A DNA stretch of 64,000 nt, taken from positions 1,140 to 65,139 of the forward strand of contig JAGVXO010000006.1 of the NCBI GenBank assembly GCA_018303755.1, in the 5' to 3' direction. The position numbers and the translations under genes were made by a program. A model generated the notes under the pieces. It had not been told where the DNA came from and ran no database searches. It worked only from the letters and a program-made list of their open reading frames with translations. Of this stretch, positions 581 to 59,973 are shown in pieces (the stretch's first letter is position 1; every line of letters begins with the position of its first letter). This DNA comes from Candidatus Pacearchaeota archaeon (lineage in GTDB: Archaea > Nanobdellota > Nanobdellia > Pacearchaeales > GW2011-AR1).

Positions 581-730
581 AATTTATTCTTCTAACAGCC
601 CATAATTTTGTATTATTTTAGGCAAGATTATTAACTTTTTTATTTTCTTTAACATTAATCGAAAAATTTAAAGAACCAATGTGAAAATGGATAGCAGATT
701 TGCAAGAAAATAAGTGAGTGAAGCGAGCAC
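581..730 (-). repeat. three-block intergenic repeat (my label IGR3B), full copy, reverse orientation
   Basis: It runs from rc-C block TTCTAACAGCCCATAATTTTG to rc-A block GCAGATTTGCAAGAAAATAAGTGAGTGAAGCGAGCAC. It starts 17 nt after the stop at 564. Confidence 0.75.
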
Positions 731-785
731 ATTAATAGTTAATTCAACACAAAAATACTTTTAAACTGCTGTTCCAAGCATTTTC

Positions 786-2483
786 ATGAAACTAACACGA
801 AGGCAGTTTATCGCATCGCTTGGAACTATTGCAGGAAATTCTTTAATTCCGATAGATTCTTCATCTGAAATCTTTGGTGCTTGGCCGGTTTTAAGAGAAT
901 GGAATTTTAATGAATTTCACAAATATTCTGATTGGGTTAGAAATATTTACAAATTTAAAAGAGATGGAACAGGAAAACAAAAAGGCGCAAAGATTGATAG
1001 AGTTATGATAGATGATGAAATGAATTTGTTGAATAATCCTGATTTTTTACAGAATGGAAATGCTCAATTAGGTAGTGATGATTTAGGTTTGTTGAAAGCG
1101 ATGTGCCATTGCGGAAGTTTTCCAGAATTGCTATTTCTATATTATAATTATCGGAGAGGACTGCCTGCTGTTGTCTCGCAGATAAAAATGAAAAAAGGAG
1201 GGGATATAAGATACTCTTATGGAAATCATCCTGTTGGAAGTGTTGATAGTGTTTCTTTTAATGGAAATTTTAGAGGTTTTTTAAGTGCTTCAATGGAAGG
1301 GGGTGAAAATGGATTTAATTTTGTTTCTGGAAATTTTAGGACAGCTCCTGATTTAGAAGCCACTGATTCTGTTCCTATTTCAATAAATCAAAGTTCTTTG
1401 GTTCCGGGGACAATGTGCTATAATGCCAACGGGCACTGCCTTGTTGTAGGGGATATTGATTCTTCAGGCGAGATTCATTTTCTTGATTCTCATCCAGACC
1501 ACTCAATAACTTTTAATCAGACACTTTCTGCAATACCCTTTGTCAAATCTGCTGAGCTTGGTGTTTCTGGATTATCAAGATGCTATGATGGTTTCAGAGT
1601 TATGCGCTTTGCAAAAATGCAGGGAGGAAAAGCGGTTCATTTTACAAATCAAGAAATGCTTGAGTTTGGATACAGCATTGAGCAGTATAAACTTATGGCA
1701 GAATTAAATGAAAATGGAAGTATAGAAATAAATGGAGAAAAAGTTTCTGACTATCCTGGAATTGTAAGAGCTTCATTAAGAACAGGAATTGAATCTCCTG
1801 TAAAATTTTTAGAATCATCTGTTTTAGAATTTTCAGAAATGCTCGAAGAACGAGCAGAGTTTGTCAGGCAGGCGTGGAATGATGTTCTGCAAAACGGAGT
1901 TATAACTTTTCCAAATGATTCTTCTGAAGAAAATATCTATCAGGCAAATGGGCGTTGGGAAGTATGGAGCTCTCCTTCAAGTGATGTTGACAGAAAGAAT
2001 AAATATTCTTATTTTACCCAAAGATTAAAATCAATGCTGGAAAATTTTGGAAATTCCCAGATATGCGATTATTCTGGATTTTCATCTAGAAAAGCACTTG
2101 CAGAATTTTTAATAAAAAGAAAAGAAGAATTATTTTTAGAAAAAGGAATTGTATATGAAAATTCAAGCGGAAAATCTTTTAGATTAGCTCTGTCAGATAT
2201 TGAAAGCAGATTGTTTGATATGTCCTTTGATCCTAATCATCCTCCTGAATTAAGATGGGGCGCGCCAGAAAATTCTGAAGAAAGACAGGGAATGAAATTA
2301 TTTAAAACGCCATTAAGAACAGGAGAAAGTTTGGATGCTTTGACAGCTTATAATCTTGAAAAAGGATTGAGGTATTATCCTGTTCGTCAGGCAACTCCGA
2401 CTTCATTAAATTTAGAAGCTAATCCTAAAACTCCACCATTTGAACTTTTTAATAAAGTTCTGGCATCTTATCTTGCGCCATAA
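786..2483 (+). CDS. secreted hypothetical protein with twin-arginine-type signal; possible papain-fold (NlpC/P60-like) hydrolase
   Basis: The N-terminus MKLTRRQFIASLGTIAG looks like a Tat signal. CHCGSF and NGHCLVVGD..GEIHFLDSHPD weakly resemble Cys/His catalytic segments. Confidence 0.6.
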   Translation: MKLTRRQFIASLGTIAGNSLIPIDSSSEIFGAWPVLREWNFNEFHKYSDWVRNIYKFKRDGTGKQKGAKIDRVMIDDEMNLLNNPDFLQNGNAQLGSDDLGLLKAMCHCGSFPELLFLYYNYRRGLPAVVSQIKMKKGGDIRYSYGNHPVGSVDSVSFNGNFRGFLSASMEGGENGFNFVSGNFRTAPDLEATDSVPISINQSSLVPGTMCYNANGHCLVVGDIDSSGEIHFLDSHPDHSITFNQTLSAIPFVKSAELGVSGLSRCYDGFRVMRFAKMQGGKAVHFTNQEMLEFGYSIEQYKLMAELNENGSIEINGEKVSDYPGIVRASLRTGIESPVKFLESSVLEFSEMLEERAEFVRQAWNDVLQNGVITFPNDSSEENIYQANGRWEVWSSPSSDVDRKNKYSYFTQRLKSMLENFGNSQICDYSGFSSRKALAEFLIKRKEELFLEKGIVYENSSGKSFRLALSDIESRLFDMSFDPNHPPELRWGAPENSEERQGMKLFKTPLRTGESLDALTAYNLEKGLRYYPVRQATPTSLNLEANPKTPPFELFNKVLASYLAP

Positions 2484-3198
2484 AAGGAATTGCGAGGTCA
2501 TATTTCCTAGAATTCACATAAAAAGGAATTATTTGCGCTGTTGTAAATCCTCTCTCATGCACAAGCACAATATCTCCATCTTGCGCTTCTGAACAATTTT
2601 TCATTATTGTTCCAGCACTTAATGGAGATTTTTTGGAATAGTATCTCCAGTCAAGTGTGTCAATATCCCAAAACTGAATTTCACTTTCCTGCGATTTGAT
2701 AAACTCTTTTATATCTGCTCTTGATGAACCATAAGGAAATCTGAAAAATTTTCTTATTCTTCTTATTCCTAAATGAGCATATGCTTCTTCTATCAGCTCT
2801 TCTGTTTTTTCAAACTGCTCTTTCGCACTTGCAAAACTTACTCTTTTAAAATCAGGGTGAGTGTATGAATGATTTCCTATAATACTTCCTGCCTCTAAAA
2901 CTTTATAGGCCTTTTCTCTCTGTGTCTTTAGTTGTTTCCCTATAAAATAAAAGATTGCATTTTCTCCATTTAAATTCCTGAGAATTTGCTCTGTATAATA
3001 AGAAGGGCCGTCATCTATTGTAAGAAAAATTCGTTTTGGTTGTTTTGGAAGAGCGGGTTTTTCTTCTGCAAATGATTCTAAGCCAGTTAATAATGTTCCT
3101 GCTGAGGCAGTGAATACAAGTCCATTTTTGAGGAATTCTCTTCTGTTCATTAAGCAGTTTATTAAAATTCTTTTTAAATAATTCTTGCATTTGAACAT
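2449..3198 (-). CDS. polysaccharide deacetylase (NodB homology domain) with Tat-type signal
   Basis: NodB motifs FLTIDDGPS and GNHSYTHPDF are present, with signal MNRREFLKNGLVFTASAG. An alternative start lies at 3150. The 3' end overlaps the convergent gene by 35 bp. Confidence 0.85.
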   Translation of the reverse strand: MFKCKNYLKRILINCLMNRREFLKNGLVFTASAGTLLTGLESFAEEKPALPKQPKRIFLTIDDGPSYYTEQILRNLNGENAIFYFIGKQLKTQREKAYKVLEAGSIIGNHSYTHPDFKRVSFASAKEQFEKTEELIEEAYAHLGIRRIRKFFRFPYGSSRADIKEFIKSQESEIQFWDIDTLDWRYYSKKSPLSAGTIMKNCSEAQDGDIVLVHERGFTTAQIIPFYVNSRKYDLAIPFMAQDKMPELY

Positions 3199-3260
3199 AT
3201 ATTTTATAAAAGATATATTGGATTTTATTATATAATTTAGAGAAAATAACTTTTTATAAT

Positions 3261-3414
3261 ATGCCCACTCTGCTCGCTTATCTATTTTTTAAATCCCTAA
3301 CCTGCATGGCCTCTTGATTTTTATGCTTTTAATTAGTATTAAGAATAAAGGAAAATGGGAATTGAAAAGATATTGAATTAGGGAAAATTATAAGATGTTA
3401 GCAAAATAGATTAT
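3261..3414 (+). repeat. IGR3B full copy, forward
   Basis: The A block is degenerate (GCTCGCTTATCTATTTTTTAAATCC). The C block is GAAAAGATATTGAATTAGGGAAAATTATAAGATGTTAGCAAAATAG. Confidence 0.7.
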
Positions 3415-3490
3415 TGGCTCGGCTTCGCCTCGCTCGCTTGTTTTGCAAATCCTCAATTTGTTTGGACATTGATTATTTGGATTTTTTAAA
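3415..3490 (+). repeat. IGR3B partial copy (A/B blocks), forward, tandem to the previous copy
   Basis: TGGCTCGGCTTCGCCTCGCTCGCTTGTTTTGCAAATCC...; it abuts the HerA-like gene's stop. Confidence 0.6.
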
Positions 3491-4798
3491 TCATACTCTT
3501 TTTTCAACTTTAACAGCTGTCGGCGCTTCACCGCCGTGCCATGTAATTCTTGGCTTTATTCTCATTGGATACAATCTTTCTGAATTGTCATCTAAGATTA
3601 TTGCGCTTCCTTTTAGATTAGGAAGATTGTCAATTTCTTGTTTTATGCTTTCGAGAAGATAAGTTTGCATTATTTCATTCAGCGCAGAAATATCAGGCTG
3701 TGCAGTAACTCTATGTGAAATAACAACATCTGCCTGAGTCATAACATCTCCATGTATCTGCCCTGGTTGCTGTGTTGCTAAGACAACAGAGATTCCTGGC
3801 TGTCTTCCCTCTCTAAGAAGCTGTATAAGTGCGTCTGATGCAGGAGTTTTGCCTGTTTTAGGAAGAAATTCATGAGCCTCGTCAATAAATATCCAAGCCA
3901 TTGGAACGTCTCTCACAGGCTTGAAGGAAAGATAATCAACTCCATGCCTGACTGCTTCTACTTCTTCTGCTTTTCTTGAGTTCATTCTTTCGTTGAAAAT
4001 TTTTCTTGATAATAGTCCTATGACAAGCGCCCTTACATTAAAAGCACCAATAGAGTTATAGACACTTAAATCGATAATTGTCGGCTCTCCTGATTTCAAT
4101 AACTCTTTAACACTAATGGGTCTAATGTTGCCTTCTGCAAAAACTCCCCATGTGCGCGCACTTTCAAAAAGCCCGATTGCAGAATTTTTTACATCAGAAC
4201 TATACTCTGTTTCTTTTTTTATCAAATCAATAATCTCTAGTATGCTAAAATTTTCTATATTAATATTAAAAAGAACTTTCTGTATTAAAACAGAAATAGG
4301 ATTTGTCATCTCTAATCCAAATATGAGCGTCCAATCCTCTGCTTTCATTTCAGAGACACTTAATGCAAATGATGCATCAACAGGAATTCCTTTTTCAATA
4401 TAATTCTCATAATGCCCGTAGGGAACAAGAACTCTCACAGAAATATTTTCTGGCTTTAAATTCCACTCATCAAGAAGCGCTTTTTCTTTGTTATTCTCAT
4501 ATTTCATTGTCCAGAAAATTCCCATTGTATCAAAAATAATCGGCGTGATATTTTTCCTTGATTCAATAGGAAGCCTTGAAATCTCTTCTGCAATAACTCC
4601 AAGCGAATAGGATTTTCCGCTTCCGCGTTTGCCGGCAACTAAAATTACATGGCTTCGGGCAATATCTAAAAAAATATTATTTGAAAGAGAGGTATACTGC
4701 CCCATTTTAACATAGCCTCTTCCAATTTTTATCAATCCTTTGTCTCCAAATCGCTTTTTGTCAGAATCATCTCTTCCTATAATAATATCATAAGGCAT
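3491..4798 (-). CDS. HerA/FtsK-like P-loop ATPase (DUF87 type)
   Basis: Walker A GKRGSGKSYSLG, Walker B WIFIDEAHEF, and LATQQPG are present. No NurA-like partner is adjacent. Confidence 0.75.
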   Translation of the reverse strand: MPYDIIIGRDDSDKKRFGDKGLIKIGRGYVKMGQYTSLSNNIFLDIARSHVILVAGKRGSGKSYSLGVIAEEISRLPIESRKNITPIIFDTMGIFWTMKYENNKEKALLDEWNLKPENISVRVLVPYGHYENYIEKGIPVDASFALSVSEMKAEDWTLIFGLEMTNPISVLIQKVLFNINIENFSILEIIDLIKKETEYSSDVKNSAIGLFESARTWGVFAEGNIRPISVKELLKSGEPTIIDLSVYNSIGAFNVRALVIGLLSRKIFNERMNSRKAEEVEAVRHGVDYLSFKPVRDVPMAWIFIDEAHEFLPKTGKTPASDALIQLLREGRQPGISVVLATQQPGQIHGDVMTQADVVISHRVTAQPDISALNEIMQTYLLESIKQEIDNLPNLKGSAIILDDNSERLYPMRIKPRITWHGGEAPTAVKVEKRV

Positions 4799-6664: not shown

Positions 6665-6706
6665 TTTTCTTAGATAAGAATTATTATGAAATTTTGTTAA
6701 CAGAAT

Positions 6707-6746
6707 GAAAAGATTTTGAATGGATGGAGTTATGGGATGTTTAATA
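6707..6746 (+). repeat. IGR3B C-block fragment
   Basis: GAAAAGATTTTGAATGGATGGAGTTATGGGATGTTTAATA, immediately adjacent to 108-bp repeat copy A. Confidence 0.5.
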
Positions 6747-6848
6747 CTTGTGAAAAATCTCCAATCTTTAGATTGGAGTTAAAATGTATAGATTTTTCCC
6801 GGTTCTCCCAAAACCCAAACACAAACTCCACACTTTAGTGCGGGTATA
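6741..6848 (-). repeat. 108-bp repeat, copy A (last 22 codons of rnp3, stop, hairpin and T-run)
   Basis: It is identical to 57225..57332 at 105 of 108 positions by hand alignment. Confidence 0.9.
6752..6778 (-). terminator. hairpin plus T-run after the rnp3 stop
   Basis: On the minus strand, CTCCAATCT-AA-AGATTGGAG (9-bp stem) is followed by ATTTTTC, directly after the TAA. Confidence 0.5.
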
Positions 6849-10929: not shown

Positions 10930-11214
10930 ATGGTTGCAGATAAAATTTCTATGCAGAAACTTATGAAATATCTTAATTTAACAAATAAGGCATTGGAGAT
11001 TATAAAAAATAAAATAATCAAAAGCAGAGAAAGTGAAGCAAAAAAAATTATCGAAATGGCAGCTAATTACTTAAGTGATGCAGCTCATTTTGAAAAAAAA
11101 GGAGATTTTGTAAATGCCTTTGCAGCTGTAAATTACGCGCACGGATGGATTGATGCAGGCGTCCGCCTTGGAATTTTTGATGTAAATGACAATAAAATTT
11201 TTACTGTGAAATAA
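10930..11214 (+). CDS. small conserved archaeal protein (DUF357-like)
   Basis: The family assignment is from memory of the motif FAAVNYAHGWIDAGVRLG. Confidence 0.5.
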   Translation: MVADKISMQKLMKYLNLTNKALEIIKNKIIKSRESEAKKIIEMAANYLSDAAHFEKKGDFVNAFAAVNYAHGWIDAGVRLGIFDVNDNKIFTVK

Positions 11215-12537: not shown

Positions 12538-13098
12538 ATGAGCTTGATTTGGATTTGGGCAACTTCTGTGGGAATTGTTGCATTAATTGTTATTATGTTT
12601 GTTTATTATTACAACAAATTTGTTACAAAGGGCTTAAGAATCGATAATTCCCTTGCACAGATTGATGTTCAGCTTAAGAAAAGAGCAGATTTAGTCCCTA
12701 ATTTAATTGAAACAGTCAAGGGATATGCAAAGCACGAAAAAGGAATAATGGAAGATGTTACAAAAGCGCGAAAGGCGCTTCTTTCTGCAAAAGACATTCC
12801 TTCAAAAGTTCGGGCAGGAGACCAATTGCAAAATGCATTAAAATCGATTTTTGCAATAGCTGAAAATTATCCTCAGTTAAGAGCAAATGAAAATTTCTTG
12901 CAGCTGCAAAATGAATTGTCTGCAATAGAAGACAAAGTGGCTTATGCAAGGCAGTATTACAATGACACAATACTTGACTTCAATAATTCAGTAAAAGTAT
13001 TTCCTGGAAAATTCTTTGCTTCATTGTATAGTGTAAAAGAACGCCCATTTTTGGAAATAGCAGAAAGAGAAAGGGCAGTGCCGAAAGTTAGTTTTTAA
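12538..13098 (+). CDS. lemA: LemA family protein
   Basis: An N-terminal TM helix is followed by YNKFV...IDVQLKKRADLVPNLIETVKGYAKHE...NYPQLRANENF. Confidence 0.9.
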   Translation: MSLIWIWATSVGIVALIVIMFVYYYNKFVTKGLRIDNSLAQIDVQLKKRADLVPNLIETVKGYAKHEKGIMEDVTKARKALLSAKDIPSKVRAGDQLQNALKSIFAIAENYPQLRANENFLQLQNELSAIEDKVAYARQYYNDTILDFNNSVKVFPGKFFASLYSVKERPFLEIAERERAVPKVSF

Positions 13099-13140
13099 CT
13101 TTTCTTTAAAATCTTTTGTATATGAAATCCTGACAAGATA

Positions 13141-13232
13141 ATTTTTTCTAACATCCAATAATTCTGCCTTATTCAACATCTTTTCATTTAAGGTTATTTT
13201 GTTAAATGGTGTTTTATAAATTTTTAATATAT
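13141..13232 (-). repeat. IGR3B partial copy, reverse
   Basis: TTTTTTCTAACATCCAATAATTCTGCCTTATTCAACATCTTTTC..., 43 nt after the lemA stop. Confidence 0.65.
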
Positions 13233-13624: not shown

Positions 13625-13705
13625 CAGAATAATCTATTTTACTAACATCCCATATTTTGCCTTATTTTAAGTTTGTCTATTGGTGTTTTTTCTTTTTTCA
13701 TTTTA
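13625..13705 (-). repeat. IGR3B partial copy, reverse
   Basis: TTTTACTAACATCCCATATTTTGCCTTATTTTAAGTTTGTCTATTGGTGTTTTTTCTTTTTTCATTTTA is nearly the reverse complement of 21466..21530. Confidence 0.7.
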
Positions 13706-13741
13706 TCAAAGATAAAAAACCTTTATAAATAATCTTTTACT

Positions 13742-14650
13742 ATGCAGATTATGGAACCGGCAAGAATTATATTTTATGACCAGATTGCACGAAACAAAAG
13801 AAACTCTGTTTTTCTTATGATTATCATAATTGCGATTTTTATTTTATTTGGATTTGTTATAGGCATGGCTTTTGGAAGAGATTATTTTATATTTATAATG
13901 ATTGTTTCAATAATTATTTCTATATTATATGTGTGGATTGGGTTTTATAATTCTGACAAAATCGCGCTCGCATCTGTTGGCGCAAAACCTGCTGACAGAA
14001 ATGCTTACAGAAATTTGTATAACTCGGTCGAATCAATGTCCCTTGCATCAGGAATGCCAATGCCAAGAGTGTATATTATGCCAGGAAGTCAGATAAATGC
14101 CTTTGCAACAGGGCGCAATCCTAAAAGTTCTGTGATTTGCGTGACAGAAGGTGCATTTGAAAAGCTTGATAAAAGAGAGCTTGAAGGGGTTATTGCACAT
14201 GAAATGAGTCATATTGCGAATTATGACATACGATTTATGACCCTGACTGCTGTGCTGGTTGGGATGATTGCAATTATTTCTGAGATATTCTTAAGGAGTT
14301 TGCATTTTTCAGGCGGAAATGACAGGGATAATAAAGCACAGATTATTTTTATTTTAATTGGAATACTTCTCGCAATTCTTGCGCCAATAGTCACTTATCT
14401 TGTTCAGATGGCAATATCAAGAAAGAGGGAATTCAGTGCAGATGCAACAGCAATTAAATTCACGCGCTCGCCGACAGGATTAGTTGGAGCTTTAAGAAAA
14501 ATCAAAAATGATTCTTCGTCAGAAAAAGTCCGCGTAAGCAAGGCAGTCGCGCCTTTGTTTATGTCTGATCCTTTTAAGCGTGACTTGAGCAATTTGTGGA
14601 GCACTCATCCGCCGATTGATAAAAGAATACAAATTTTAGAGAAGATGTGA
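13742..14650 (+). CDS. htpX: M48-family zinc metalloprotease, HtpX homolog
   Basis: HEMSHIANYD (HExxH), four TM segments, and C-terminal STHPPIDKRI. Confidence 0.85.
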   Translation: MQIMEPARIIFYDQIARNKRNSVFLMIIIIAIFILFGFVIGMAFGRDYFIFIMIVSIIISILYVWIGFYNSDKIALASVGAKPADRNAYRNLYNSVESMSLASGMPMPRVYIMPGSQINAFATGRNPKSSVICVTEGAFEKLDKRELEGVIAHEMSHIANYDIRFMTLTAVLVGMIAIISEIFLRSLHFSGGNDRDNKAQIIFILIGILLAILAPIVTYLVQMAISRKREFSADATAIKFTRSPTGLVGALRKIKNDSSSEKVRVSKAVAPLFMSDPFKRDLSNLWSTHPPIDKRIQILEKM

Positions 14651-18693: not shown

Positions 18694-18884
18694 AATAAGC
18701 TAAAGAGTTTTAAGTTTAAAAATATGGCGATTTTCGCTAAAAAATCATTTATTCCAGATTTCTAAGAATTATTATGTTAGAATCTTATTATTTTAACATT
18801 ATCTATTAAAAAATATGAAGAATTAATATATGAATAGATTATGATTTAGGAATAAAAATAAGTGCACCGAATGCGCACAATTAA

Positions 18885-19655
18885 TTAATCAAAATACATT
18901 CTTGATTTTAATTTATCTCTTATTCTTTTTATTGACTGAAGTTTTTTCTCTGAATATTTTGATTTCTGATTTTCATGTATGCGGTAAATATATGCTAAAA
19001 CAGGAATTCTACTGCATTTTATTCCATGCCCTATCATCTGAAGCCATAAATCATAGTCTTCACAGTTTGAAAGCTGTTCATCAAAGCGAAATTTGTCAAA
19101 TAACTCTTTTCTTGCAACAACAGAACCAACAGGAATAAATTTATTTTTGTCAAGATACTTCGCAGGCTCTTCATCCTCTTTGATGTCATCTCTTTCTACA
19201 GACTCTTTCAGAATTTCTGCAGGATTCCTAGAAAATTCTATTGACTCAATTATTTCTTTTTTCCCATCAGGAAAATTTATGATTATATCTCCATAAACAA
19301 AACCAATGTCTCTATGATTATCAAGATACTCAATCTGCTTTTCAAATCTATTGGGTATAGAAATATCATCTGAATCAAAAAAGCATACATAAATTCCTCT
19401 TGATTTTTTAATTCCCTCATTTCTTGCATGCGCAGCACCCTCATTTTTATCAAGATTAATAACTCCCACGCGCTCATCTTTTTTTGCAATTCCTTCTGCA
19501 ATTTCTAAAGTTGAATCAGTTGAACCGTCATTTACAATGATAACTTCAATATCCTCAAATGTGCTTTTTAGCACCGAACAAACTGATTCTTCAAGATACT
19601 TTTCAGAATTGTATGCAGCAATAATCACAGACAGTTTTGGATTTTCAGAGTTCAT
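18885..19655 (-). CDS. family 2 glycosyltransferase
   Basis: LSVIIAAYNSEKYLEESVCSVLKSTFEDIEVIIVNDGSTD and FFDSDD (DxD). Confidence 0.85.
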   Translation of the reverse strand: MNSENPKLSVIIAAYNSEKYLEESVCSVLKSTFEDIEVIIVNDGSTDSTLEIAEGIAKKDERVGVINLDKNEGAAHARNEGIKKSRGIYVCFFDSDDISIPNRFEKQIEYLDNHRDIGFVYGDIIINFPDGKKEIIESIEFSRNPAEILKESVERDDIKEDEEPAKYLDKNKFIPVGSVVARKELFDKFRFDEQLSNCEDYDLWLQMIGHGIKCSRIPVLAYIYRIHENQKSKYSEKKLQSIKRIRDKLKSRMYFD

Positions 19656-21358: not shown

Positions 21359-21399
21359 GCAACTACCTATTAACAGGGTTTATAAAACCTTCCCCGGAT

Positions 21400-21540
21400 T
21401 TTTATATTCTACAAATCTCTAATCAGGTTGCACAATGGTTGTTTAATTGCTTTAATTTATATTAAATGAAAAAAAGAAAAAACACCAATAGACAAACTTA
21501 AAATAAGTAAAAATTATGAGATGTTAGCAGAATAAATATA
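21400..21540 (+). repeat. IGR3B copy, forward (no clear GC hairpin)
   Basis: TTTATATTCTACAAATCTCTAATC...GCTTTAATTTATATTAAATG...CTTAAAATAAGTAAAAATTATGAGATGTTAGCAGAATAAATATA. Confidence 0.7.
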
Positions 21541-26261: not shown

Positions 26262-26269
26262 TTATTGGT

Positions 26270-26400
26270 TTATTCTTTAAATATCCCATTCTTTTTCCTC
26301 ATTTTACATCCTTTCAATTTACTTTTATTTTTTTCAATTAAGTTTATCCAATGCCCAATTAAAACAAATAAAAAACCAATTAACAAGCAAATTTAGGATT
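26270..26400 (-). repeat. IGR3B copy, reverse
   Basis: AAATATCCCATTCTTTTTCCTCATTTTACATCCTTTCAATTT..., starting 9 nt after the stop at 26261. Confidence 0.65.
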
Positions 26401-26402
26401 TT

Positions 26403-41583: not shown

Positions 41584-41739
41584 GTTTAATCGTGGGCTTA
41601 AAGAGAAATTTAACATAAATCTTATTCATATCTTTTAAAGCAATAATATTATATGTAAAATAAAGGAAAGTAATGGGATTAAACCTCTTGCAAAATTCAG
41701 AATAGCAATATTTATAAATGACTTCACATTAATTTTTGC

Positions 41740-42708: not shown

Positions 42709-43119
42709 TCAAGGAGAAGAAAACTCTTCTATTGTGCCTGTTGAAGAAATGCATGCAAGACTAACTTGCGAGCCACTTGGTATAATAACCTCTTTATCTT
42801 CAATAACCATTTCCAAAGGTGTAGAAGGTGTCCATTCTTCATGATTAAGTTTTCTTAAGAGTATTTTTGCAAGATCTCCATAAAAACACGGCTCAATTAC
42901 TCCCTCTACCTGGCATATCGCCCTTGGTTCAAAAATTGAACCAATGCACTGAAGGACATGTTTTTCATTATCTTGATAATACAAATTATATATTTCTCTT
43001 CCATTTCTCACCATATGCGCATAAAGCTGGATTCTATCATGCCCATTTAGCGCTGGCTTTTTTCTTTTATCAGCTTCAACTTCTATTCCAATTTCTGTTT
43101 CTCTTAGTTCAGTTTCCAT
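42709..43119 (-). CDS. hypothetical orphan protein
   Basis: 136-aa ORF with no recognisable motif. Confidence 0.5.
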   Translation of the reverse strand: METELRETEIGIEVEADKRKKPALNGHDRIQLYAHMVRNGREIYNLYYQDNEKHVLQCIGSIFEPRAICQVEGVIEPCFYGDLAKILLRKLNHEEWTPSTPLEMVIEDKEVIIPSGSQVSLACISSTGTIEEFSSP

Positions 43120-43166: not shown

Positions 43167-43312
43167 TGGCGCTTCGCGCCCGTTTGTTATTTCTTAAATC
43201 CTGTGCAATTTGCATATTGGTTATTCAAATGGTTTAATTTATTTTGATATAAACAGCGCCAAAGAATAAATATTAAATAAGGCAAAGTAGGGTATGTTTA
43301 AAAAATAAAAAA
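43167..43312 (+). repeat. IGR3B full copy, forward
   Basis: TGGCGCTTCGCGCCCGTTTGTTATTTCTTAAATCC...CATATTGGTTATTCAAATGGTTTAATTTATTTTG...AAATAAGGCAAAGTAGGGTATGTTTAAAAAAT. Confidence 0.8.
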
Positions 43313-43387
43313 GAATAGATTTATAATTAACAAAAATAGCATATTTGTATTGGATAAAGAAGAGTTAAATAAAATACCTTCTCTAAT

Positions 43388-43459
43388 GGAGCTGTAGTTC
43401 AATGGTTAGAATGTTGGTCTCCAGAACCAGTGATGGGGGTTCGATTCCCTCCAGCTCCA
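43388..43459 (+). tRNA. tRNA-Trp (anticodon CCA)
   Basis: Hand-folded. The acceptor is GGAGCTG/CAGCTCC, the anticodon arm TTGGT-CTCCAGA-ACCAG, the T arm GGGGG-TTCGATT-CCCTC, and the discriminator A. Confidence 0.9.
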
Positions 43460-43460
43460 T

Positions 43461-43535
43461 ATAATCCTGCGCCCACTTTTTATTTTGCAAATTCTTAATC
43501 TGTTTATTCCTTGGCTCTTTAGATTTTTTAAGATA
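43461..43535 (+). repeat. IGR3B partial copy (A/B blocks), forward, directly after tRNA-Trp
   Basis: ATAATCCTGCGCCCACTTTTTATTTTGCAAATTCTTAATCTGTTTATTCCTTGGCTCTTTAGATTTTTTAAG. Confidence 0.55.
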
Positions 43536-43573
43536 ATATTCAAAGAATAAAAGAAATAGGGGATTTAAAAAAA

Positions 43574-43766
43574 TCCCCTCACCAGGAATCGAACCTGGGA
43601 TCTCTCGGGTTCTGCACGAACATTTGGCTAATCAGGCTTCATTTTTATCCGAATTCGGAACATCTGCCCTAGTTAACTTACAACATCATAAGGAGATGTC
43701 ATAAGAAGAACCATTGGTTCTTTTTATTTCTACAGCCAAGCGCTCTAACCACTGAGCTATGAGGGG
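43574..43766 (-). tRNA. tRNA-Tyr (anticodon GTA) with 120-nt intron at the canonical 37/38 position
   Basis: Exon 1 is 43766..43730 (CCCCTCA TA GCTC AGTGGTTA GAGC G CTTGG CTGTAG). The intron is 43729..43610. Exon 2 is 43609..43574 (C CCGAG AGATC CCAGG TTCGATT CCTGG TGAGGGG A). It has the archaeal-type C1:G72 pair. Confidence 0.8.
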
Positions 43767-43789
43767 ATTATTAAGGATATGAAGCCGTG

Positions 43790-43799
43790 TTTTTAAAAG
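43790..43799 (-). promoter_or_regulatory. candidate TATA box for tRNA-Tyr
   Basis: The minus-strand sequence CTTTTAAAAA is centred about 28 nt upstream of the tRNA 5' end. Confidence 0.35.
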
Positions 43800-43818
43800 T
43801 TATTATTGCTTGAATAAC

Positions 43819-43940
43819 GGCGCGCTGCGGGCGCGCCTTTTTATAATGGCGCTTCGCGCTTGTTTTATTTTTCAAATCTGCTATCCATTCGTACATTGGC
43901 TCTTTAAAATTTTTTAATTGTTAGCAAATTTTCTAACCAT
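43819..43940 (+). repeat. extra GC hairpin plus IGR3B partial copy (A/B blocks), forward
   Basis: GGCGCGC-TGCGG-GCGCGCC (43819..43837) is followed by TTTTTATAA. Then comes TGGCGCTTCGCGCTTGTTTTATTTTTCAAATCTGCTATCCATTCGTACATTGGCTCTTTAAAA. Confidence 0.75.
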
Positions 43941-44050: not shown

Positions 44051-44368
44051 ATGAAAACTAAATTGACTGAAAGACATTATCAAGTTATTGAAAAGGATGA
44101 AAGCGGATTAATCCCTGCTTGGGTAGACCATATAGTCTATAACCCAGAAGGTATTCTCACCGCAGATAAGGGAGCTTATAAATTTGGTTTTTTTCCAAAG
44201 CATCCAAAAAATTATTCCCCACTTCCATCCCGTAGTGATAGAATATCATGGAAGCATATTCATGAAGAAATAAATAAGGATGGAGAGAGACAATTTCCAA
44301 AATTCACTCCTGAAGAAGTTTTAAGGATTCTTAGTATGTTAGAATTTTCTTTAGTCGATTCTAAATAA
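44051..44368 (+). CDS. hypothetical orphan protein
   Basis: 105-aa ORF lying between an A/B-block fragment and a C-block fragment of the repeat family. Confidence 0.5.
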   Translation: MKTKLTERHYQVIEKDESGLIPAWVDHIVYNPEGILTADKGAYKFGFFPKHPKNYSPLPSRSDRISWKHIHEEINKDGERQFPKFTPEEVLRILSMLEFSLVDSK

Positions 44369-44400
44369 AGAAAAGGGGATTAAAATAATAAAACACCCCT

Positions 44401-44466
44401 GAAAAGATGTAAAATGTGGGAAAAGAATGGAATGTTAAAAAAATTAATATTGTGCTCGCCGCCTTA
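44401..44466 (+). repeat. IGR3B C-block fragment plus the start of a further A block, forward
   Basis: GAAAAGATGTAAAATGTGGGAAAAGAATGGAATGTTAAAAAAATTAATATT followed by GTGCTCGCCGCC. It abuts the stop of the gene at 44478. Confidence 0.7.
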
Positions 44467-44477: not shown

Positions 44478-45881
44478 CTATTCAGAAACATTCTTTGGCT
44501 CATTTATAAAAAATGCTCTGTTTGAAGATGCCTCATGCATTTTCCCGTTTTTCTCGTACAAAACATTTGCAACAGGAAGCTCAAATCTTCCGACGATTTT
44601 AAGCTTTGAATATACAATATAAGTAAATATTCTTTCCTCTCCGTCGCCAAGATGATTAATAGTCCATTTTATTCTTCCGCTTGTTTTGTCAATGCTCGAA
44701 GGTGCAGTTCCGTACTGCTCATATAATTTTGTCATTGCAGGAACTCTGTCATAAATAGAAACTTTTTCAACGAATTTTTTCGCCTTCACATGCAAAGTAA
44801 CTTTCAGTGCAAAATCATTTGATTTGGTTTTTATATAATTCACCCTTTTAGTTATAACAACATATTTTGACATATAAGCATTAAAAATCAAAGTTATTGC
44901 TGCTATAGTCAAAATAAGAAGAAGCGGAAACATCCAGTTGGTTGTCATAACAACATTAAGCGATTCAGCCGGCTGAAGTTCTTTTTGCCAGGTATAATAA
45001 ACAAAAAATCCCTTTCTCTCACTTTTTACAGGTTCGGGAGACAATGTTGTAAAAAGGCGCGAAACAATATTCTTTCTTGCACTTGCCTCTGCTATTGTAG
45101 GAACATTGCCCTCGTTCTTTTTTTCTATTAAATTCTTATGAACTATTATTCCTGAGCTTGATTCTGATGTAGATATTCCGCTTTTTTCAAGAATCTTCAC
45201 AGGCGACTTTACAATGCCTTTTCTTCCGTCAATAGTATATTCTCCAGATAAAGAATATTCCCCATAAACAAGCTTCTTTAATTTTTCGCTGTTAATCTGA
45301 AGATGAACCTCTTTTTTTTCATATGGCTTTAAAGAAACAACTTGTGTCTGAGCATCCATAAACTCTGATGAGAAAACAAATTGTATACTATCATAGGTGC
45401 TGTCTTCTACATTATATAAATAGATTTTTACCTTGTCTGAATCGAGATTTATATTATCTGCACTCAAATCAAAAATCTCTGAAAAATCAACAAGCTTTAT
45501 CTCTATTTTTGTTTTTACATATTCTGAATTGTCTATTTTTGAGAAATAAAGCGGCACAGAAAGATAACCGACATTCTTTTTTATATTTTCAAGGGGCATA
45601 AATTCAAATCGAATTGTTTTTGTTTCTCCATATCCAAGGGAAAAGTTTTCAGGGGTTATTTTAAATCTTTCAAAGGTATATATTTGAAATGTGTCTGCAT
45701 AATCATTATTTTTCAGAGTAATATCAAAAACAGCAGGGGCATTTCCGTCATTGATTATTGTAGGAGCAACAGGCACAGCAGTTATTTCAAGATTAATCGC
45801 GCTTGCAAATGCAAAAGAAAATACCAGTAATGCAAAAATTGCAGATACTCCAAACACCCTTTTTAAATTATTCATATTCAA
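44478..45881 (-). CDS. surface/membrane protein (signal peptide, beta-rich ectodomain, one internal TM)
   Basis: The signal-like N-terminus is MNMNNLKRVFGVSAIFALLVFSFAFA. The TM segment is WMFPLLLILTIAAITLIF. Confidence 0.55.
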   Translation of the reverse strand: MNMNNLKRVFGVSAIFALLVFSFAFASAINLEITAVPVAPTIINDGNAPAVFDITLKNNDYADTFQIYTFERFKITPENFSLGYGETKTIRFEFMPLENIKKNVGYLSVPLYFSKIDNSEYVKTKIEIKLVDFSEIFDLSADNINLDSDKVKIYLYNVEDSTYDSIQFVFSSEFMDAQTQVVSLKPYEKKEVHLQINSEKLKKLVYGEYSLSGEYTIDGRKGIVKSPVKILEKSGISTSESSSGIIVHKNLIEKKNEGNVPTIAEASARKNIVSRLFTTLSPEPVKSERKGFFVYYTWQKELQPAESLNVVMTTNWMFPLLLILTIAAITLIFNAYMSKYVVITKRVNYIKTKSNDFALKVTLHVKAKKFVEKVSIYDRVPAMTKLYEQYGTAPSSIDKTSGRIKWTINHLGDGEERIFTYIVYSKLKIVGRFELPVANVLYEKNGKMHEASSNRAFFINEPKNVSE

Positions 45882-45969: not shown

Positions 45970-46470
45970 TTATTTCATCCCCTCAATTGTCAGAAATGCC
46001 TTAACCTGCTCTGTTATTTCATCAACATCGCGGATTAGTTTTATCTCGTATTTTTTCATTGTGCCTTTAATTATATACTCATCATAAATTCCTCTTAAAA
46101 ACTTCATAAATGGATTTACATCCCATCTGCTTCCCCAGTCTCTTATCAAAGTTCCTGAAATCTTTACTTCAAATGTTCCCTGATTTGTTTTTACCTTTTT
46201 CCCGTTTTTTTCAACTTCGACTGACTTCATGCCGATTATTCTCCATGCAAGTTTCATTTGATTCTTGAAATAATCCGAAATTTTTTTATTTGCCTCCCAG
46301 ACAATTTCAATTTTCTTTGAATCTCCTGTCACTTCTTCTGAATATTTTTGCTCTTCAACATCATATTTCTCCTCAACAAGCCACCTGTAAACAAACTGAT
46401 AAACTTCCTTAAAATCAAACAAGCCGGACATTTTAACTTTCTGTTCAAATATCTTCTCTTTTTCAGCCAT
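45970..46470 (-). CDS. hypothetical protein
   Basis: 166-aa ORF with no recognisable motif. Confidence 0.5.
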   Translation of the reverse strand: MAEKEKIFEQKVKMSGLFDFKEVYQFVYRWLVEEKYDVEEQKYSEEVTGDSKKIEIVWEANKKISDYFKNQMKLAWRIIGMKSVEVEKNGKKVKTNQGTFEVKISGTLIRDWGSRWDVNPFMKFLRGIYDEYIIKGTMKKYEIKLIRDVDEITEQVKAFLTIEGMK

Positions 46471-46561: not shown

Positions 46562-46650
46562 GCCATGCTCCCTGTTTTATTCTGCAAATCTGCTAACTGT
46601 GAGTACATTGGAATTTTCATATGGGCATAATATTCAAATTCAAAAGAGAG
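46562..46650 (+). repeat. IGR3B partial copy (A/B blocks), forward
   Basis: GCCATGCTCCCTGTTTTATTCTGCAAATCTGCTAACTGTGAGTACATTGGAATTTTC. Confidence 0.65.
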
Positions 46651-47628: not shown

Positions 47629-47670
47629 GTGTTCCATCGATTCTCTCATGCGCCCACCGAGAATCGAACT
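47629..47670 (-). repeat. 42-bp duplicate of the tRNA-Gly 3' end (22 nt) plus trailer (20 nt)
   Basis: It is identical to 47742..47783. It lacks the 5' T-stem strand, so it is a fragment and not a tRNA. Confidence 0.85.
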
Positions 47671-47761
47671 TAAAAACCACCTGCGGGTTTTTATAATCCT
47701 GCATGTGTGATTTAGTTTTCCTATCCTGCATGTGTATTTGAGTGTTCCATCGATTCTCTCA

Positions 47762-47832
47762 TGCGCCCACCGAGAATCGAACTCGGGTCGCCTCGTTGGC
47801 AACGAGACATTCTACCATTAAACCATGAGCGC
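47762..47832 (-). tRNA. tRNA-Gly (anticodon GCC)
   Basis: Hand-folded. The acceptor is GCGCTCA/TGGGCGC, the anticodon arm TCTCG-TTGCCAA-CGAGG, and the T arm CCGAG-TTCGATT-CTCGG. Confidence 0.9.
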
Positions 47833-47897
47833 AGAGCAATAGTATCAAAAAACCAATATTTAAAAAGACTTTGATATAAATAATACTATAAGATTTC

Positions 47898-52463: not shown

Positions 52464-52464
52464 A

Positions 52465-53010: not shown

Positions 53011-53155
53011 ATTTATTCTGCAAATCTGTGAACTTATTAATATGCTTGAATTTATACAATTTAATATGGAATAAGATTAATTGAAAAAATAAAGACAAAC
53101 TAAAAAAAGGTAAAATGTGGGGAGAAATTATGGGATGTTAGAAAAATTTATTTTA
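53011..53155 (+). repeat. IGR3B copy lacking the hairpin, forward, unit 1 of a 3-unit tandem array
   Basis: ATTTATTCTGCAAATCTGTGAAC...GGTAAAATGTGGGGAGAAATTATGGGATGTTAGAAAAATTTATTTTA. It starts 13 nt after the rpl10e stop. Confidence 0.8.
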
Positions 53156-53305
53156 GTGCGCTTCGCGCTTGTTTTATTTTTCAAATCCAACGCCATTTGT
53201 ATATTGGTTCTTCAAATGCTTTAATTTATATTTAATGAAAAAATAAAGTGCAATTTAAAAAACATTAAACAAGGAAAGTTATTGGATGTTAACAGAATAA
53301 ATATA
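53156..53305 (+). repeat. IGR3B full copy (subtype 1), forward, unit 2
   Basis: GTGCGCTTCGCGCTTGTTTTATTTTTCAAATCC...TATATTGGTTCTTCAAATGCTTTAATTTATATTTAATG...GGAAAGTTATTGGATGTTAACAGAATAAATATA. Confidence 0.85.
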
Positions 53306-53475
53306 GTGTTCGCTTCGCTCACCTATCTATTTTGCAAATCTCTAATCTGTTTATACATCAATTAATTTATATTCAAGTCATTTAATTTATAACAATAAAG
53401 AAGATTATGTAAAAATAAACCTTCAAGGAGAAAATGTAAAATAAGGAAAAGTAATGGTATAGTGGAAAAATATTC
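53306..53475 (+). repeat. IGR3B full copy (subtype 2), forward, unit 3
   Basis: GTGTTCGCTTCGCTCACCTATCTATTTTGCAAATCTCTAATCTGTTTATACATCAATTAATT...CCTTCAAGGAGAAAATGTAAAATAAGGAAAAGTAATGG. Confidence 0.85.
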
Positions 53476-57194: not shown

Positions 57195-57224
57195 CTTGAT
57201 GAAGTGCTTGATATTTTTTAATGA

Positions 57225-57332
57225 TTAATACTCGTGAAAAATCTCCAATCTTTAGATTGGAGTTAAAATGTATAGATTTTTCCCGGTTCTCCCAAAACCC
57301 AAGCACAAATTCCACACTTTAGTGCGGGTATA
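57225..57332 (-). repeat. 108-bp repeat, copy B (intergenic, downstream of ppsA)
   Basis: It is a near-identical copy of 6741..6848. The rnp3 reading frame is retained only as a 23-codon stub behind an upstream stop. Confidence 0.9.
57237..57262 (-). terminator. same hairpin plus T-run within repeat copy B
   Basis: The sequence is identical to 6752..6778. Confidence 0.35.
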
Positions 57333-58242: not shown

Positions 58243-58344
58243 TTAAACCTTTCCTTTGTTACCACTACTTAATAACACATATAGAAAGATTTATAAAGAG
58301 GACGTGCATAGAAAAAGTATAATAAATTAATAATAAAAAAGAAA

Positions 58345-59175
58345 ATGGCAGTTAAAGAAGTTTTACAGGAGAATATAGACCTTGAACATAGAGTTAGTCA
58401 AGGGGCTGAAATTCTTAGTAAGACTATTGCGCCAGAATCAGAAGAAGAGCAAAAATATAATCAAGGAGCAAGAGCACTTATTGGAAGTGAGGCAGTTAAA
58501 CTAAGACCTCATCCAGGGGTTGATTTTTACCTGACTGCAGAACCGCAGTTTGTTGCAGGAGCTGCAAAATCACTTGCAAGAGATGCTCAAAAAAAAGTCG
58601 TTGATGCAGTAATTGGAGATATAAAAGGAACTCTTGAAATTCTTGCAGAAAAACAATTGCCTTCTGTTTTAACTTTAGTCGCTCCATCATCAGGTCATGA
58701 TGATACTCATAAAAAGCATAGAAAATACTTTGAAATGCAAGAAAGAATATACTCCACAAAAGGTTCAGACGAGCCAAACATTGCAGAATATCTAAAACCA
58801 TTTGATGGTACTTGCCCTAATTATGATGCTTTTATAATTAGAATTGCAACTCAAAAAGTGAAAGTAAAAGACAAAGATGGGAAAGATGTGGAAAAGATAG
58901 TTGCAACTGACTTCGGAAAACAGCTTGCTGCAGATTATGTTGAAAGCCATTTAAGGGCAGTTGTTGAAAACTTTGTAGAAGGCGAAGGCAAAGACAGAAA
59001 AATAAATTATGCAAGATTAAAAGAATATCACGCTGAAAACTTCGGAGCACTTAAATATGAAACTGACGAAGACAAAGCAAAGAAACATAGCATTGCTTAT
59101 AATTTAGCAAGAATTAGTGTAAAGCCGACAGAGCCAAAAGCGCCAGACGCAGACGAAGAAGCTGAAGTTGCTTAA
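58345..59175 (+). CDS. hypothetical orphan protein
   Basis: 276-aa ORF with an A/E/K/G-rich composition unlike the neighbouring core genes. Confidence 0.55.
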   Translation: MAVKEVLQENIDLEHRVSQGAEILSKTIAPESEEEQKYNQGARALIGSEAVKLRPHPGVDFYLTAEPQFVAGAAKSLARDAQKKVVDAVIGDIKGTLEILAEKQLPSVLTLVAPSSGHDDTHKKHRKYFEMQERIYSTKGSDEPNIAEYLKPFDGTCPNYDAFIIRIATQKVKVKDKDGKDVEKIVATDFGKQLAADYVESHLRAVVENFVEGEGKDRKINYARLKEYHAENFGALKYETDEDKAKKHSIAYNLARISVKPTEPKAPDADEEAEVA

Positions 59176-59189
59176 TAATTTAATTCAGA

Positions 59190-59340
59190 TTGGCGCTTCG
59201 CGCCCATTTATTCTTCAAATCTCTAATCTGCCTATATATTCATTATTCAAATGCTTTAATTTATTTTAAAATAAAAAAGAAAAGTAAATTGAAGAGATGT
59301 AAAATAAGACAAGGGTATGAAATCTTTAAAGAAATAATCA
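59190..59340 (+). repeat. IGR3B full copy, forward
   Basis: TGGCGCTTCGCGCCCATTTATTCTTCAAATCTCTAATC...ATTATTCAAATGCTTTAATTTATTTTAAAAT...GAAGAGATGTAAAATAAGACAAGGGTATG. Confidence 0.8.
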
Positions 59341-59375
59341 GTATATTATACACCTTTTTATTCTTGAAAATTCAA

Positions 59376-59753
59376 TTACATATGCCTCAATAAATAATCT
59401 GTAAATTCCTCAAAAAAATTACAGGTTTTTAGGAGTTCTTCACGGCTTCCAGCATAATTATCTTCCATTGCTTTTTCCAGCACTTGTCTATAATCTTTCA
59501 GAGCATTAAGCTCTCTTTCTAATCCCCCATAATATACTATTTTCTTTTCATCTATAAATCTGGAGTATCTATCAAATGCCCGTCCTCCAGGAACAAGCTC
59601 TGCTACCAAATTCAATCCATCACAAAGAGCCTGCAAATCATTCTGTGTTTTTTTTGCTTGTAAAACAACTCTTTGAAGAGCTCCTGCAACTCTGCTTGAA
59701 ATTAATGGTTCTGCCCAGATGCTTTTGGGTTTTGAAATTTGAGATGCGCTCAT
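59376..59753 (-). CDS. hypothetical orphan protein
   Basis: 125-aa ORF bracketed by two full-length repeat-family copies. Confidence 0.5.
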   Translation of the reverse strand: MSASQISKPKSIWAEPLISSRVAGALQRVVLQAKKTQNDLQALCDGLNLVAELVPGGRAFDRYSRFIDEKKIVYYGGLERELNALKDYRQVLEKAMEDNYAGSREELLKTCNFFEEFTDYLLRHM

Positions 59754-59809
59754 CTCAACTAGAATAAAAAGGATTATATAAATATTATTGGGATAATCAA
59801 TAATTATTG

Positions 59810-59973
59810 ATGCGCTTCGCGCCTTTTAATATTTTTGAAATCCTGCGCCATTTATACATTAGTTTTTTAGATATTTTATTTGATATTGGATAAAATTTAT
59901 TTAAAAAAATGAACTCCAATGAGCTCGCTTAAAATAAGGCAAAATTATGGCATGTTAGCAAAATAAATTATAT
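59810..59973 (+). repeat. IGR3B full copy, forward
   Basis: ATGCGCTTCGCGCCTTTTAATATTTTTGAAATCCTGCGCCATTTATACATTAG...CTTAAAATAAGGCAAAATTATGGCATGTTAGCAAAATAAATTATAT. Confidence 0.8.

Follow-up and report, generated by a model that had tools for sequence, protein, structure and literature searches.

Archaea of the DPANN group are usually seen as streamlined, with little room for selfish DNA, and it is against this view that the locus described here raises its question: what is the non-coding segment that recurs in spacer after spacer of a Pacearchaeota-like genome, and what might it do there? The locus is a stretch of 64,000 nucleotides (nt) of contig JAGVXO010000006.1 (positions 1,140 to 65,139; assembly GCA_018303755.1, Candidatus Pacearchaeota archaeon), referred to throughout as the window, and the segment is a repeat unit with three conserved blocks, A, B and C, of which A can form a GC-rich hairpin. 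A preliminary description of the window had claimed a dense intergenic family of more than 20 such units and had likened them to known mobile hairpin elements. We propose that the repeat may be a decayed, lineage-specific, non-coding and non-autonomous selfish element that is tolerated, or has been co-opted, as a two-way archaeal terminator, a reading of the sequence to which we give roughly even weight.

The existence of the family is not in question. An nhmmer profile, built from the 11 copies listed in the preliminary description and iterated once, gives 26 matches in the window at E≤1, 22 of them with E<1e-4 (best E=1e-31), and 12 of the window copies are full-length or nearly so. The two controls, the reversed window and the window with its intergenic DNA shuffled, give no match at E<0.1, and chance is therefore excluded: the claimed family is real, and its members align far beyond what shuffled AT-rich spacers yield. 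The 11 listed copies align end to end, each of their coordinates agreeing with a profile match to within a few bases, and a seed-and-extend repeat search of the window recovers many related segments of 30-90 nt in both orientations. The block sequences first quoted were taken from individual copies and do not represent a consensus; the 25-mer given for block A, expected 0.00 times in shuffles, occurs in that exact form only twice. Together the copies make up 2,848 nt, which is 4.45% of this AT-rich window (28-35% G+C) and 21.5% of its DNA outside open reading frames (ORFs) of at least 90 amino acids, and they are intergenic, with only 42 nt lying within ORFs.

A full unit measures 141-174 nt. 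Read forward, it begins with the GC block (consensus GCGCTTCGCGC), followed by TATT(C/T)TGCAAATC, CATTGGT and TTTTAATTTATA, then an A-rich stretch of variable length, then (GA)TGTAAAATAAGG and finally AAAATTATGGGATGTTAGAAAAATAAAT. The unit has no conserved ORF, and the early account of three conserved, non-coding blocks with no convincing terminal inverted repeats is borne out. A leaderless mini-ORF starting from the reverse-strand CCAATG was considered and rejected, as only about two thirds of copies have that ATG and the spacing of the blocks varies by 1-2 nt. Full copies are related in a star-like pattern, their pairwise identities clustering tightly around 64% (range 55-77%); the only outliers are strain orthologues and one duplicated dimer, and because of this narrow distribution the family is best described as an old burst with no recent copies. 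Between strain pairs the substitution rate is 0.7% in the elements, compared with 0.9% for coding sequence and 0.5% for the remaining spacers, which is too few differences to judge purifying selection. Two types of partial copy occur, one with A+B only and the other with B+C or C only. Where a spacer holds several copies they stand head-to-tail in 15 of 15 cases (17 adjacent pairs, p about 8e-6), 1-2 nt apart.

The genes of the window are archaeal, among them those for aIF5B, an Lhr helicase and phosphoenolpyruvate synthase. The nearest homologues of the aIF5B outside its own population are 68-72% identical, several of them annotated as Pacearchaeota, and several metagenomes of groundwater have the same gene on clonal contigs, with at least 99.95% identity. 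The host, a groundwater archaeon, is Pacearchaeota-like, in keeping with its initial assignment to the DPANN. Scanning metagenome contigs with the pattern of the subtype-1 A block gave 75 loci, of which 28 (30-35% G+C) hold family members and none overlaps the window. In the window and the loci of the same population, about 266 kb in all, there are 89 distinct copies, 45 of them full-length, or one in about every 3 kb. By contrast, the three closest relatives (aIF5B about 70-72% identical) have, in 47 kb of syntenic loci, no family member (best E=0.097) and no comparable repeat family either, and their gene maps show spacers much shorter than those of the host. The subtype-1 pattern found no archaeal match among the 185,579 GTDB species representatives, its 21 single matches being all bacterial and due to chance. 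Since these loci of the closest relatives hold no family member and the GTDB archaea no match to the subtype-1 pattern, the repeat is a lineage-specific gain or expansion. Rfam 15 has no match for it and recognizes only four tRNAs at gathering score in the window, the best matches of the head-to-tail trimer (E=0.18-0.39) lying far under the gathering scores. A phage collection gave no match, IMG/VR gave one pattern match only, which we take as chance because its contig has the length of a metagenome locus with no family member, and the literature searched holds no described family that corresponds to the repeat, all of which agrees with the first impression that it is no recognisable archaeal family.

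The features that are most informative about a possible role, and which the preliminary description missed, are the polarity of the copies relative to neighbouring genes and the asymmetry of their T tracts. Copies are present in 49 of 163 spacers, and the median length of these spacers is 309 nt as against 78.5 nt for those with no copy. The C end faces a stop codon in 28 cases and a start codon in 9 (p=0.0026), mostly at -5 to 22 nt from the stop, while the A end faces starts in 23 cases and stops in 13 (p=0.13), at 33-80 nt from the ATG and with the neighbouring gene's own promoter, its B recognition element (BRE) and TATA box, located between the A end and the ATG. In spacers between genes of the same direction, the arrangement with C at the stop and A at the start outnumbers its reverse by 16 to 6. 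A switch of polarity along the chromosome was also considered, as the window clusters to the right of 34.6 kb are all on the plus strand (8/8) and those to the left mostly on the minus strand (6/8), but orientations at other loci are mixed within 10 kb.

The tracts of T are distributed unequally over the two strands of the unit. On the forward strand, block A is accompanied by a run of at least four T in 34 of 45 full copies, as against 2 of 45 on the reverse strand, while the reverse strand of B-C holds a run of at least five T in 43 of 45 full copies and of at least four in all 45. A run of at least five T lies within 120 nt of the stop of all 18 genes that face a C end, compared with 81 of 162 other genes, and the A-block hairpins with their T tracts are among the top matches of an intrinsic-terminator scan. 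Termination in archaea is signalled by U tracts with no requirement for a hairpin. Two or more U4 tracts give, experimentally, the strongest termination dependent on the factor aCPSF1 (PMC8716108), and one locus of the population encodes a protein of the aCPSF type (beta-CASP/RMMBL).

The proposed explanation is that the repeat would have invaded the intergenic spacers of one Pacearchaeota-like lineage and then decayed to its present 64% or so of pairwise identity. Its A end is a GC hairpin, intact or decayed, with a T tract behind it on the forward strand, and because B-C is A-rich on the forward strand, the reverse strand shows several U4-U10 tracts. Transcription arriving from the C side could thus meet at least four U4-U10 tracts, and from the A side a hairpin and one or two U tracts, such that from either direction it would encounter a terminator of the archaeal type. 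Copies may have been kept and oriented as two-way terminators or insulators between genes, or may at least be harmless as such, and the orientation bias would reflect selection for the stronger side, C, to face the 3' ends of genes. We infer an insertional, selfish origin, and the terminator activity is predicted from the arrangement of stems and tracts.

Several observations weigh against this proposal. The orientation bias in spacers between same-direction genes reaches only p=0.05, and the short distances between C ends and stops could simply reflect the scant room downstream of genes. Runs of at least five T at the forward-strand A end are limited to 16 of the 45 full copies, and only 36 of the 61 A blocks have a stable hairpin. 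The motifs that are not T tracts, namely TGCAAATC, CATTGGT, AAGG and TGGGATGTTAG, are conserved in up to 99% of copies, which U tracts do not explain. As for the selfish origin, we found no empty site, insertion polymorphism, target duplication or near-identical pair of copies, and strain pairs share the same copies; because of these negative findings, mobility itself is hypothetical. A mobilising enzyme was sought in the 266 kb by all-against-all blastp, by a regular expression for the Y1 motif on six-frame ORFs and by Pfam on part of the proteins. There is no multi-copy protein gene and no IS200/RAYT-like Y1 motif, and the only candidate is an rve fragment, ill-suited to an element that has no inverted repeats. 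This fragment (L035:80-523), an ORF of 147 amino acids, covers no more than the C-terminal part of the rve integrase core (DDE transposase) and is likely the remnant of an insertion sequence (IS); it is the sole transposase-like sequence noticed in the 266 kb.

Two further ideas on how the family spread were considered and rejected. Target-primed retro-insertion into T runs predicts an excess of 5' truncation, and we counted about 15 copies truncated at the 5' end and 13 at the 3' end. Longer, autonomous versions of the element were looked for by all-against-all blastn of 203 kb, which returned only a duplicated gene-plus-upstream region and the dimer shared by 34.6 and 53.1 kb. The head-to-tail arrays and the single hairpin-bearing end would fit either local tandem duplication or a hairpin-recognising mechanism of the single-strand or rolling-circle type. 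A bolder form of the proposal, which we regard as rather improbable, is that the repeat would be the first archaeal counterpart of bacterial REP/SPRITE-type elements: a genome-wide two-way terminator or insulator cassette spread by an undescribed one-palindrome, hairpin-dependent (HUH/rolling-circle-like) mechanism that builds strictly head-to-tail arrays in a DPANN archaeon with a reduced genome, with TGCAAATC, CATTGGT and TGGGATGTTAG serving as recognition sites for that machinery or for an RNA- or DNA-binding factor of the host.

Of the alternatives, the one that survives best, although we still consider it unlikely, takes up the analogy drawn at the outset: an element related to repetitive extragenic palindromes (REPs) and their mosaic arrays (bacterial interspersed mosaic elements, BIMEs), or derived from IS200/IS605 in the manner of palindrome-associated transposable elements (PATEs), mobilised as single-stranded DNA through its hairpin by a Y1 HUH transposase encoded elsewhere. 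The hairpin itself lends this some weight. A stable form (dG≤-5 kcal/mol; palindrome of 11-20 nt) is found in 36 of 61 A blocks, and stems that differ are nonetheless complementary: GGCGC/GCGCC, GTGCGC/GCGCAC, GTGC/GCAC and GCGCC/GGCGC, together with the alternatives GCGCGC-TTCG-GCGCGC, GCGCGCCC-TTCG-GGCGCGC and GCGCGCC-GAA-GGCGCGC. Among copies with the exact core the fifth stem pair covaries (G:C 10, T:A 4, G:A 0, T:C 2; Fisher p=0.008), which bears out the expectation of compensatory substitutions. Many copies carry further GC blocks, one or two of them, on the upstream side of A, such that the A region can hold one to three GC palindromes. In one strain a 29-nt deletion has removed such a block, and the only intergenic GC islands in the window are A regions and tRNAs. 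The absence of clear terminal inverted repeats is also as this alternative would have it, and transposase-free palindrome elements have an archaeal precedent in the PATEs (PMC3119063).

Other observations speak against it. The palindromes of PATEs and IS605-type elements lie near both termini (PMC3119063), whereas about 27 of 45 full copies, counted manually from the alignment, lack a GC block beyond the C end. Multi-copy spacers are uniformly head-to-tail and show no alternation, and no hairpin is possible in 25 of 61 A blocks (41%), which are CT-rich and do not fold (e.g. TCGCTTCGCTC, TCATTTCATTC and GCTCGCTCGTTTCACTC). There is no conserved target oligonucleotide 5' of the element. The palindrome, for its part, shows no fixed GTAG-like foot and belongs to a conserved segment of about 150 nt. 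No copies are recent, the search for a Y1/HUH transposase gave neither an IS200-like motif nor a multi-copy gene in the 266 kb, and the analogy with REP/BIME or IS200/IS605 elements is not supported. The GC hairpin at one end was correctly recognized as present and stable, but only in about 59% of A blocks, and the two A-block subtypes that had been distinguished both exist, but as the ends of a wider spectrum. In the CT-rich A blocks (e.g. 34767-34783, 53306-53323 and 716-732) the two halves have changed in parallel (TCGCT-TCGCT, TCATT-TCATT), and they read as direct, not inverted, repeats that are strand-asymmetric, an observation that we report without explanation.

A second alternative, in our view quite improbable, is that the units are genes for small non-coding RNAs, in which a TATA-like block B (TTTAATTTATA) would drive transcription of block C and the next A hairpin with its U tract would terminate it. 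The hairpin loops are of the UUC/UUCG type with compensatory changes in their stems, and in the head-to-tail arrays a hairpin and T tract do stand directly after C. However, solitary copies mostly have no terminator after C, and by manual count A+B-only and C-only fragments are about equal in number. RNAalifold yields no shared fold for either strand, and individual units are no more stably folded than shuffles (z between +0.3 and -1.8). Rfam has nothing to match them even at E≤5, no C/D-box motifs are seen in the consensus, and a C/D-box or other structured RNA was rejected on these grounds.

The promoters of the host bear on the same question. Its BRE/TATA motif, CACAGAAAGCTTTATAAA, lies at a constant distance from the ATG in 77 of 162 genes, beginning exactly 39 nt before it, and this implies that mRNAs are mostly leaderless. 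Scored with a matrix for this motif, the units have median best scores of 6.0 (forward) and 5.1 (reverse), compared with 4.9 for random 160-nt windows and 8.8 for real promoters, and the mean score at the best fixed column of the unit is below 0. No fixed position in the unit outscores random windows, and block B as a canonical promoter was rejected; the part of one partial copy (13632-13754) that aligns with block B does overlap a real BRE/TATA (AACCTTTATAAAT), that of an M48 peptidase gene (from Pfam and our reading of the sequence), the start of which is likely ATG 13751. Such uniform promoters also serve to correct start-codon calls, in this instance 13751 rather than 13742.

A third possibility, that the unit is a cis-regulatory module in which the GC palindrome is the upstream site of a dimeric transcription factor for the adjacent promoter, is very unlikely. 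It draws on the palindromic core and on the A ends that face starts, just upstream of the BRE/TATA of the gene, but that bias is not significant and 13 A ends are at stops, the distance to the ATG ranges over 33-80 nt and favours no phase, the palindrome is missing from 41% of A blocks, blocks B and C are left unexplained, and the orthologous genes are expressed in relatives that have no such module. Least probable of all is a classical miniature inverted-repeat transposable element (MITE) with degenerate inverted ends recognised by a DDE transposase, since, although its size, AT-richness, intergenic position and the rve fragment at L035:80-523 are compatible and the post-hairpin segment (TTTATTNTTTGCAAATC...CCAT) bears a weak likeness to the C end in reverse complement, TTTATTTTTCTAACATCCCAT (A versus reverse-complement C profile z=2.05, permutation p=0.04), single copies show no more inverted similarity than shuffles do (mean z=0.18), such that the likeness may be purely compositional and terminal inverted repeats are at most marginal. 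There is no strongly base-paired fold, target duplications could not be seen at 64% identity and with no empty sites, and strict head-to-tail arrays are atypical of MITEs.

The copies in the window are listed in Table 1. The dimer at 34612-34938 is 79% identical to 53153-53471. The weaker fragments that had been noted fared unevenly: the one near 18725 is genuine but lies about 70 nt away, at 18797-18880, that at 41651 is borderline (E=0.04), and that at 35598 has no profile match and is only an unrelated terminator-like hairpin (35607-35621).

Table 1. Members of the repeat family in the window, with position, strand, nhmmer E value and surroundings; "new" marks partial copies that the preliminary description did not list.
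Feature	Positions	Strand	E value	Profile positions	A block	Context
Full copy	582-732	-	4.5e-27	3-162	CT-rich variant GTGCTCGCTTCACTCAC, no hairpin	C end 17 nt past stop of ORF 58-564(+); A end 53 nt upstream of ATG 786, TATA box of that gene between its ATG and the A end
Full copy	3261-3411	+	1.3e-25		Degenerate	A end 62 nt from start of gene 2449-3198(-)
Partial copy, A+B (new)	3426-3496	+	2e-11	10-83		Head-to-tail behind 3261-3411; adjoins stop of gene 3491-4798(-)
Fragment, C block alone (new)	13138-13209	-	3.6e-10	91-162		39 nt past stop of 12538-13098(+)
Partial copy, B+C (new)	13632-13754	-	7.9e-12	38-162		
Partial copy, A+B	18797-18880	-	2e-7	3-85	Hairpin GTGCGCATTCGGTGCAC and T tract	Hairpin and T tract 4 nt past stop of 18885-19655(-)
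Nearly full copy	21392-21537	+	9e-26	14-162	No GC hairpin	Flanked by two minus-strand genes; C end towards stop, A end towards start
Partial copy, B+C (new)	26267-26403	-	1.8e-18	32-163		C end 5 nt past stop of 25644-26261(+); upstream of aIF5B
Full copy	29942-30104	-	2.3e-26		Hairpin GGCGC-TTC-GCGCT	Divergent spacer; hairpin 60 nt upstream of tRNA-His
Full copy	32915-33080	-	6e-28		Second GC palindrome GGCGCACCTACGGGCGCGCC beyond A end, ~33083-33105 (element 32915-33105 in all)	A end 68 nt from ATG 33149
Full copy, dimer unit 1	34612-34763	+	1.6e-30		Hairpin GTGC-TTC-GCGC	Head-to-tail dimer; A end 48 nt from start of 33844-34563(-)
Full copy, dimer unit 2	34765-34938	+	1.1e-27		CT-rich GCGTTCGCTTCGCTCAC	
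Doubtful short C-block fragment	41651-41679	+	0.039			
Full copy	43167-43309	+	1.8e-28		Hairpin GGCGC-TTC-GCGCC	Divergent spacer; hairpin 47 nt from start of 42709-43119(-); C end 77 nt upstream of tRNA-Trp
Partial copy, A+B (new)	43467-43573	+	1.2e-14			Begins 6 nt past tRNA-Trp 3' end; T tract CTTTTTATTTTG at position expected of tRNA-Trp terminator
Partial copy, A+B (new)	43846-43928	+	1.6e-15		Preceded by extra GC palindrome GGCGCGC-TGCG-GGCGCGCC at 43819-43837 (element 43817-43928)	Element ~50 nt upstream of minus-strand tRNA-like gene
C-block fragment (new)	44346-44448	+	7.3e-12	68-162	Truncated A block TATTGTGCTCGCCGCC next, to 44465	Ends at stop of 44478-45881(-)
A-block fragment (new)	46567-46622	+	4.8e-7	16-69		96 nt from start of 45970-46470(-)
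Trimer unit 1 (new)	53012-53151	+	2.1e-13	25-162	No hairpin	Head-to-tail trimer; begins 13 nt past stop of ribosomal protein L10e/L16 (52465-52998)
Full copy, trimer unit 2	53154-53302	+	8.2e-31		Hairpin GTGCGC-TTC-GCGC	
Full copy, trimer unit 3	53304-53472	+	1.3e-27		CT-rich GTGTTCGCTTCGCTCAC	
Full copy	59190-59338	+	1.5e-28		Hairpin and T tract	Convergent genes either side; hairpin and T tract 14 nt past stop of 58345-59175(+); C end 37 nt from stop of 59376-59753(-)
Full copy	59810-59968	+	2.1e-30			Flanked by two minus-strand genes; C end 22 nt from stop of 59991-60818(-); A end 56 nt from start at 59753

Several other features were noticed in the same DNA. The tRNA-like gene on the minus strand at 43574-43770 pairs perfectly over the 7 bp of its acceptor stem (CCCCTCA/TGAGGGG) and its D and T arms are intact, while its anticodon loop (CTGTAGA) is followed by an interruption of more than 100 nt; it is called by neither ARAGORN nor Rfam, and ARAGORN instead gives a dubious permuted transfer-messenger RNA (tmRNA) at 43370-43937. 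A second repeat family, of 112 nt, occurs at 6737-6848 and 57221-57332 (96% identical) and at L065:9390-9520 and L086:7643-7770 (93-97%). It has two TTTA-loop hairpins, CTCCAATC-TTTA-GATTGGAG and CCACAC-TTTA-GTGCGG, its minus-strand fold has z=-2.5, and it has no match in Rfam. Ahead of its first copy, at 6704-6750, is a weak C-block-like segment that the profile missed. An exact direct repeat of 42 nt is present at 47629-47670 and 47742-47783, 113 nt apart, the second copy overlapping the 3' part of tRNA-Gly (47761-47833, minus strand), and it could be the remnant of an att-like integration event.

A group of paralogous small proteins share their first 85 or so residues (L034:2109, L035:3863, L074:287, L099:3459, L049:1432 and one L086 gene), and their genes have a long conserved leader ending in TGATTGAAAGGAGGTGATAAAATG with a strong Shine-Dalgarno sequence. 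About half of the host genes look leaderless, their TATA box being at -29. The small-protein gene of L034 and L035 has two repeat units upstream of it, in a region that is duplicated as a whole. The genes for the origin-associated proteins OapB and OapC lie at L056:10212-11042, which suggests that a replication origin is nearby, and a repeat unit at 11052-11196 of the same locus begins 9 nt past the OapC stop.

That one non-coding family should occupy about 30% of the spacers and about a fifth of the non-coding DNA of a DPANN archaeon, with none in its nearest relatives, is significant for several reasons. If the units are indeed two-way terminators, the repeat would supply transcription-unit boundaries wholesale in an archaeon, and the roughly 300 natural variants would be a resource for studying U-tract and aCPSF1-dependent termination. 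Identifying the mode of spread may reveal a mobilisation mechanism new to archaea. On the practical side, assemblies of this lineage are probably broken by the family, which also yields spurious calls of small ORFs, tmRNAs and terminators.

How, then, does the repeat compare with known systems? In bacteria, REPs in BIMEs are palindromes of 20-40 nt with no long conserved flanks, arranged in alternating orientation and linked to a gene for a Y1 HUH transposase (RAYT). Like them, the present elements are extragenic, GC-rich imperfect palindromes in high copy number, often just downstream of genes and at times clustered, but here the palindrome is part of a longer conserved unit, the clusters do not alternate, and no Y1 HUH motif turned up in the 266 kb. 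The haloarchaeal PATEs have palindromes near both termini and ends like those of resident IS605-type transposons (PMC3119063). They share with our repeat an archaeal host, heterogeneity, the lack of a transposase and of inverted terminal repeats, a palindrome near a terminus and internal deletions mediated by repeats (compare the 29-nt deletion), and at 141-174 nt the unit is likewise too short to encode a transposase; however, it is palindromic at one end only, and the 266 kb hold no IS605-type element. The BOX elements (boxA-boxB(n)-boxC; PMC3049150) are also modular, three-block intergenic repeats of similar size with many copies and with partial versions that lack modules, but a BOX is a stable stem-loop formed by pairing of boxA with boxC, has IS-related inverted ends and varies only in the tandem number of boxB, whereas A-C pairing is unsupported in our unit and it is whole units, not block B, that are found in tandem. 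The feature that defines each of these groups was looked for and not found, namely alternating clusters for REP/BIME, palindromes at both ends for PATEs and an A-C stem for BOX, and the repeat should be kept apart from all three.

By analogy, the closest precedent appears to be the pneumococcal SPRITE, a terminator-like interspersed repeat that is enriched by the 3' ends of coding sequences and for which co-option as terminators has been proposed (PMC3049150). Both repeats are small, non-coding and interspersed, both have a stem followed by a U-rich tract near the 3' ends of coding sequences, neither has a transposase of its own, and both can be read as parasitic DNA that was possibly co-opted for termination; our unit, too, would present a stem or U tract to incoming transcription and is enriched at gene 3' ends. 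The SPRITE, however, has a bacterial host, no sequence similarity to our repeat and essentially one 18-bp stem with a U tract, unlike the 150-170 nt, the three blocks, the hairpin of 4-8 bp that is often absent, the tracts facing both ways and the head-to-tail arrays described here. The repeat is a previously undescribed interspersed element of a known general kind, unusual in its architecture and its host, and would add a new case, specific to one lineage, to the selfish intergenic repeats that are familiar from bacteria.

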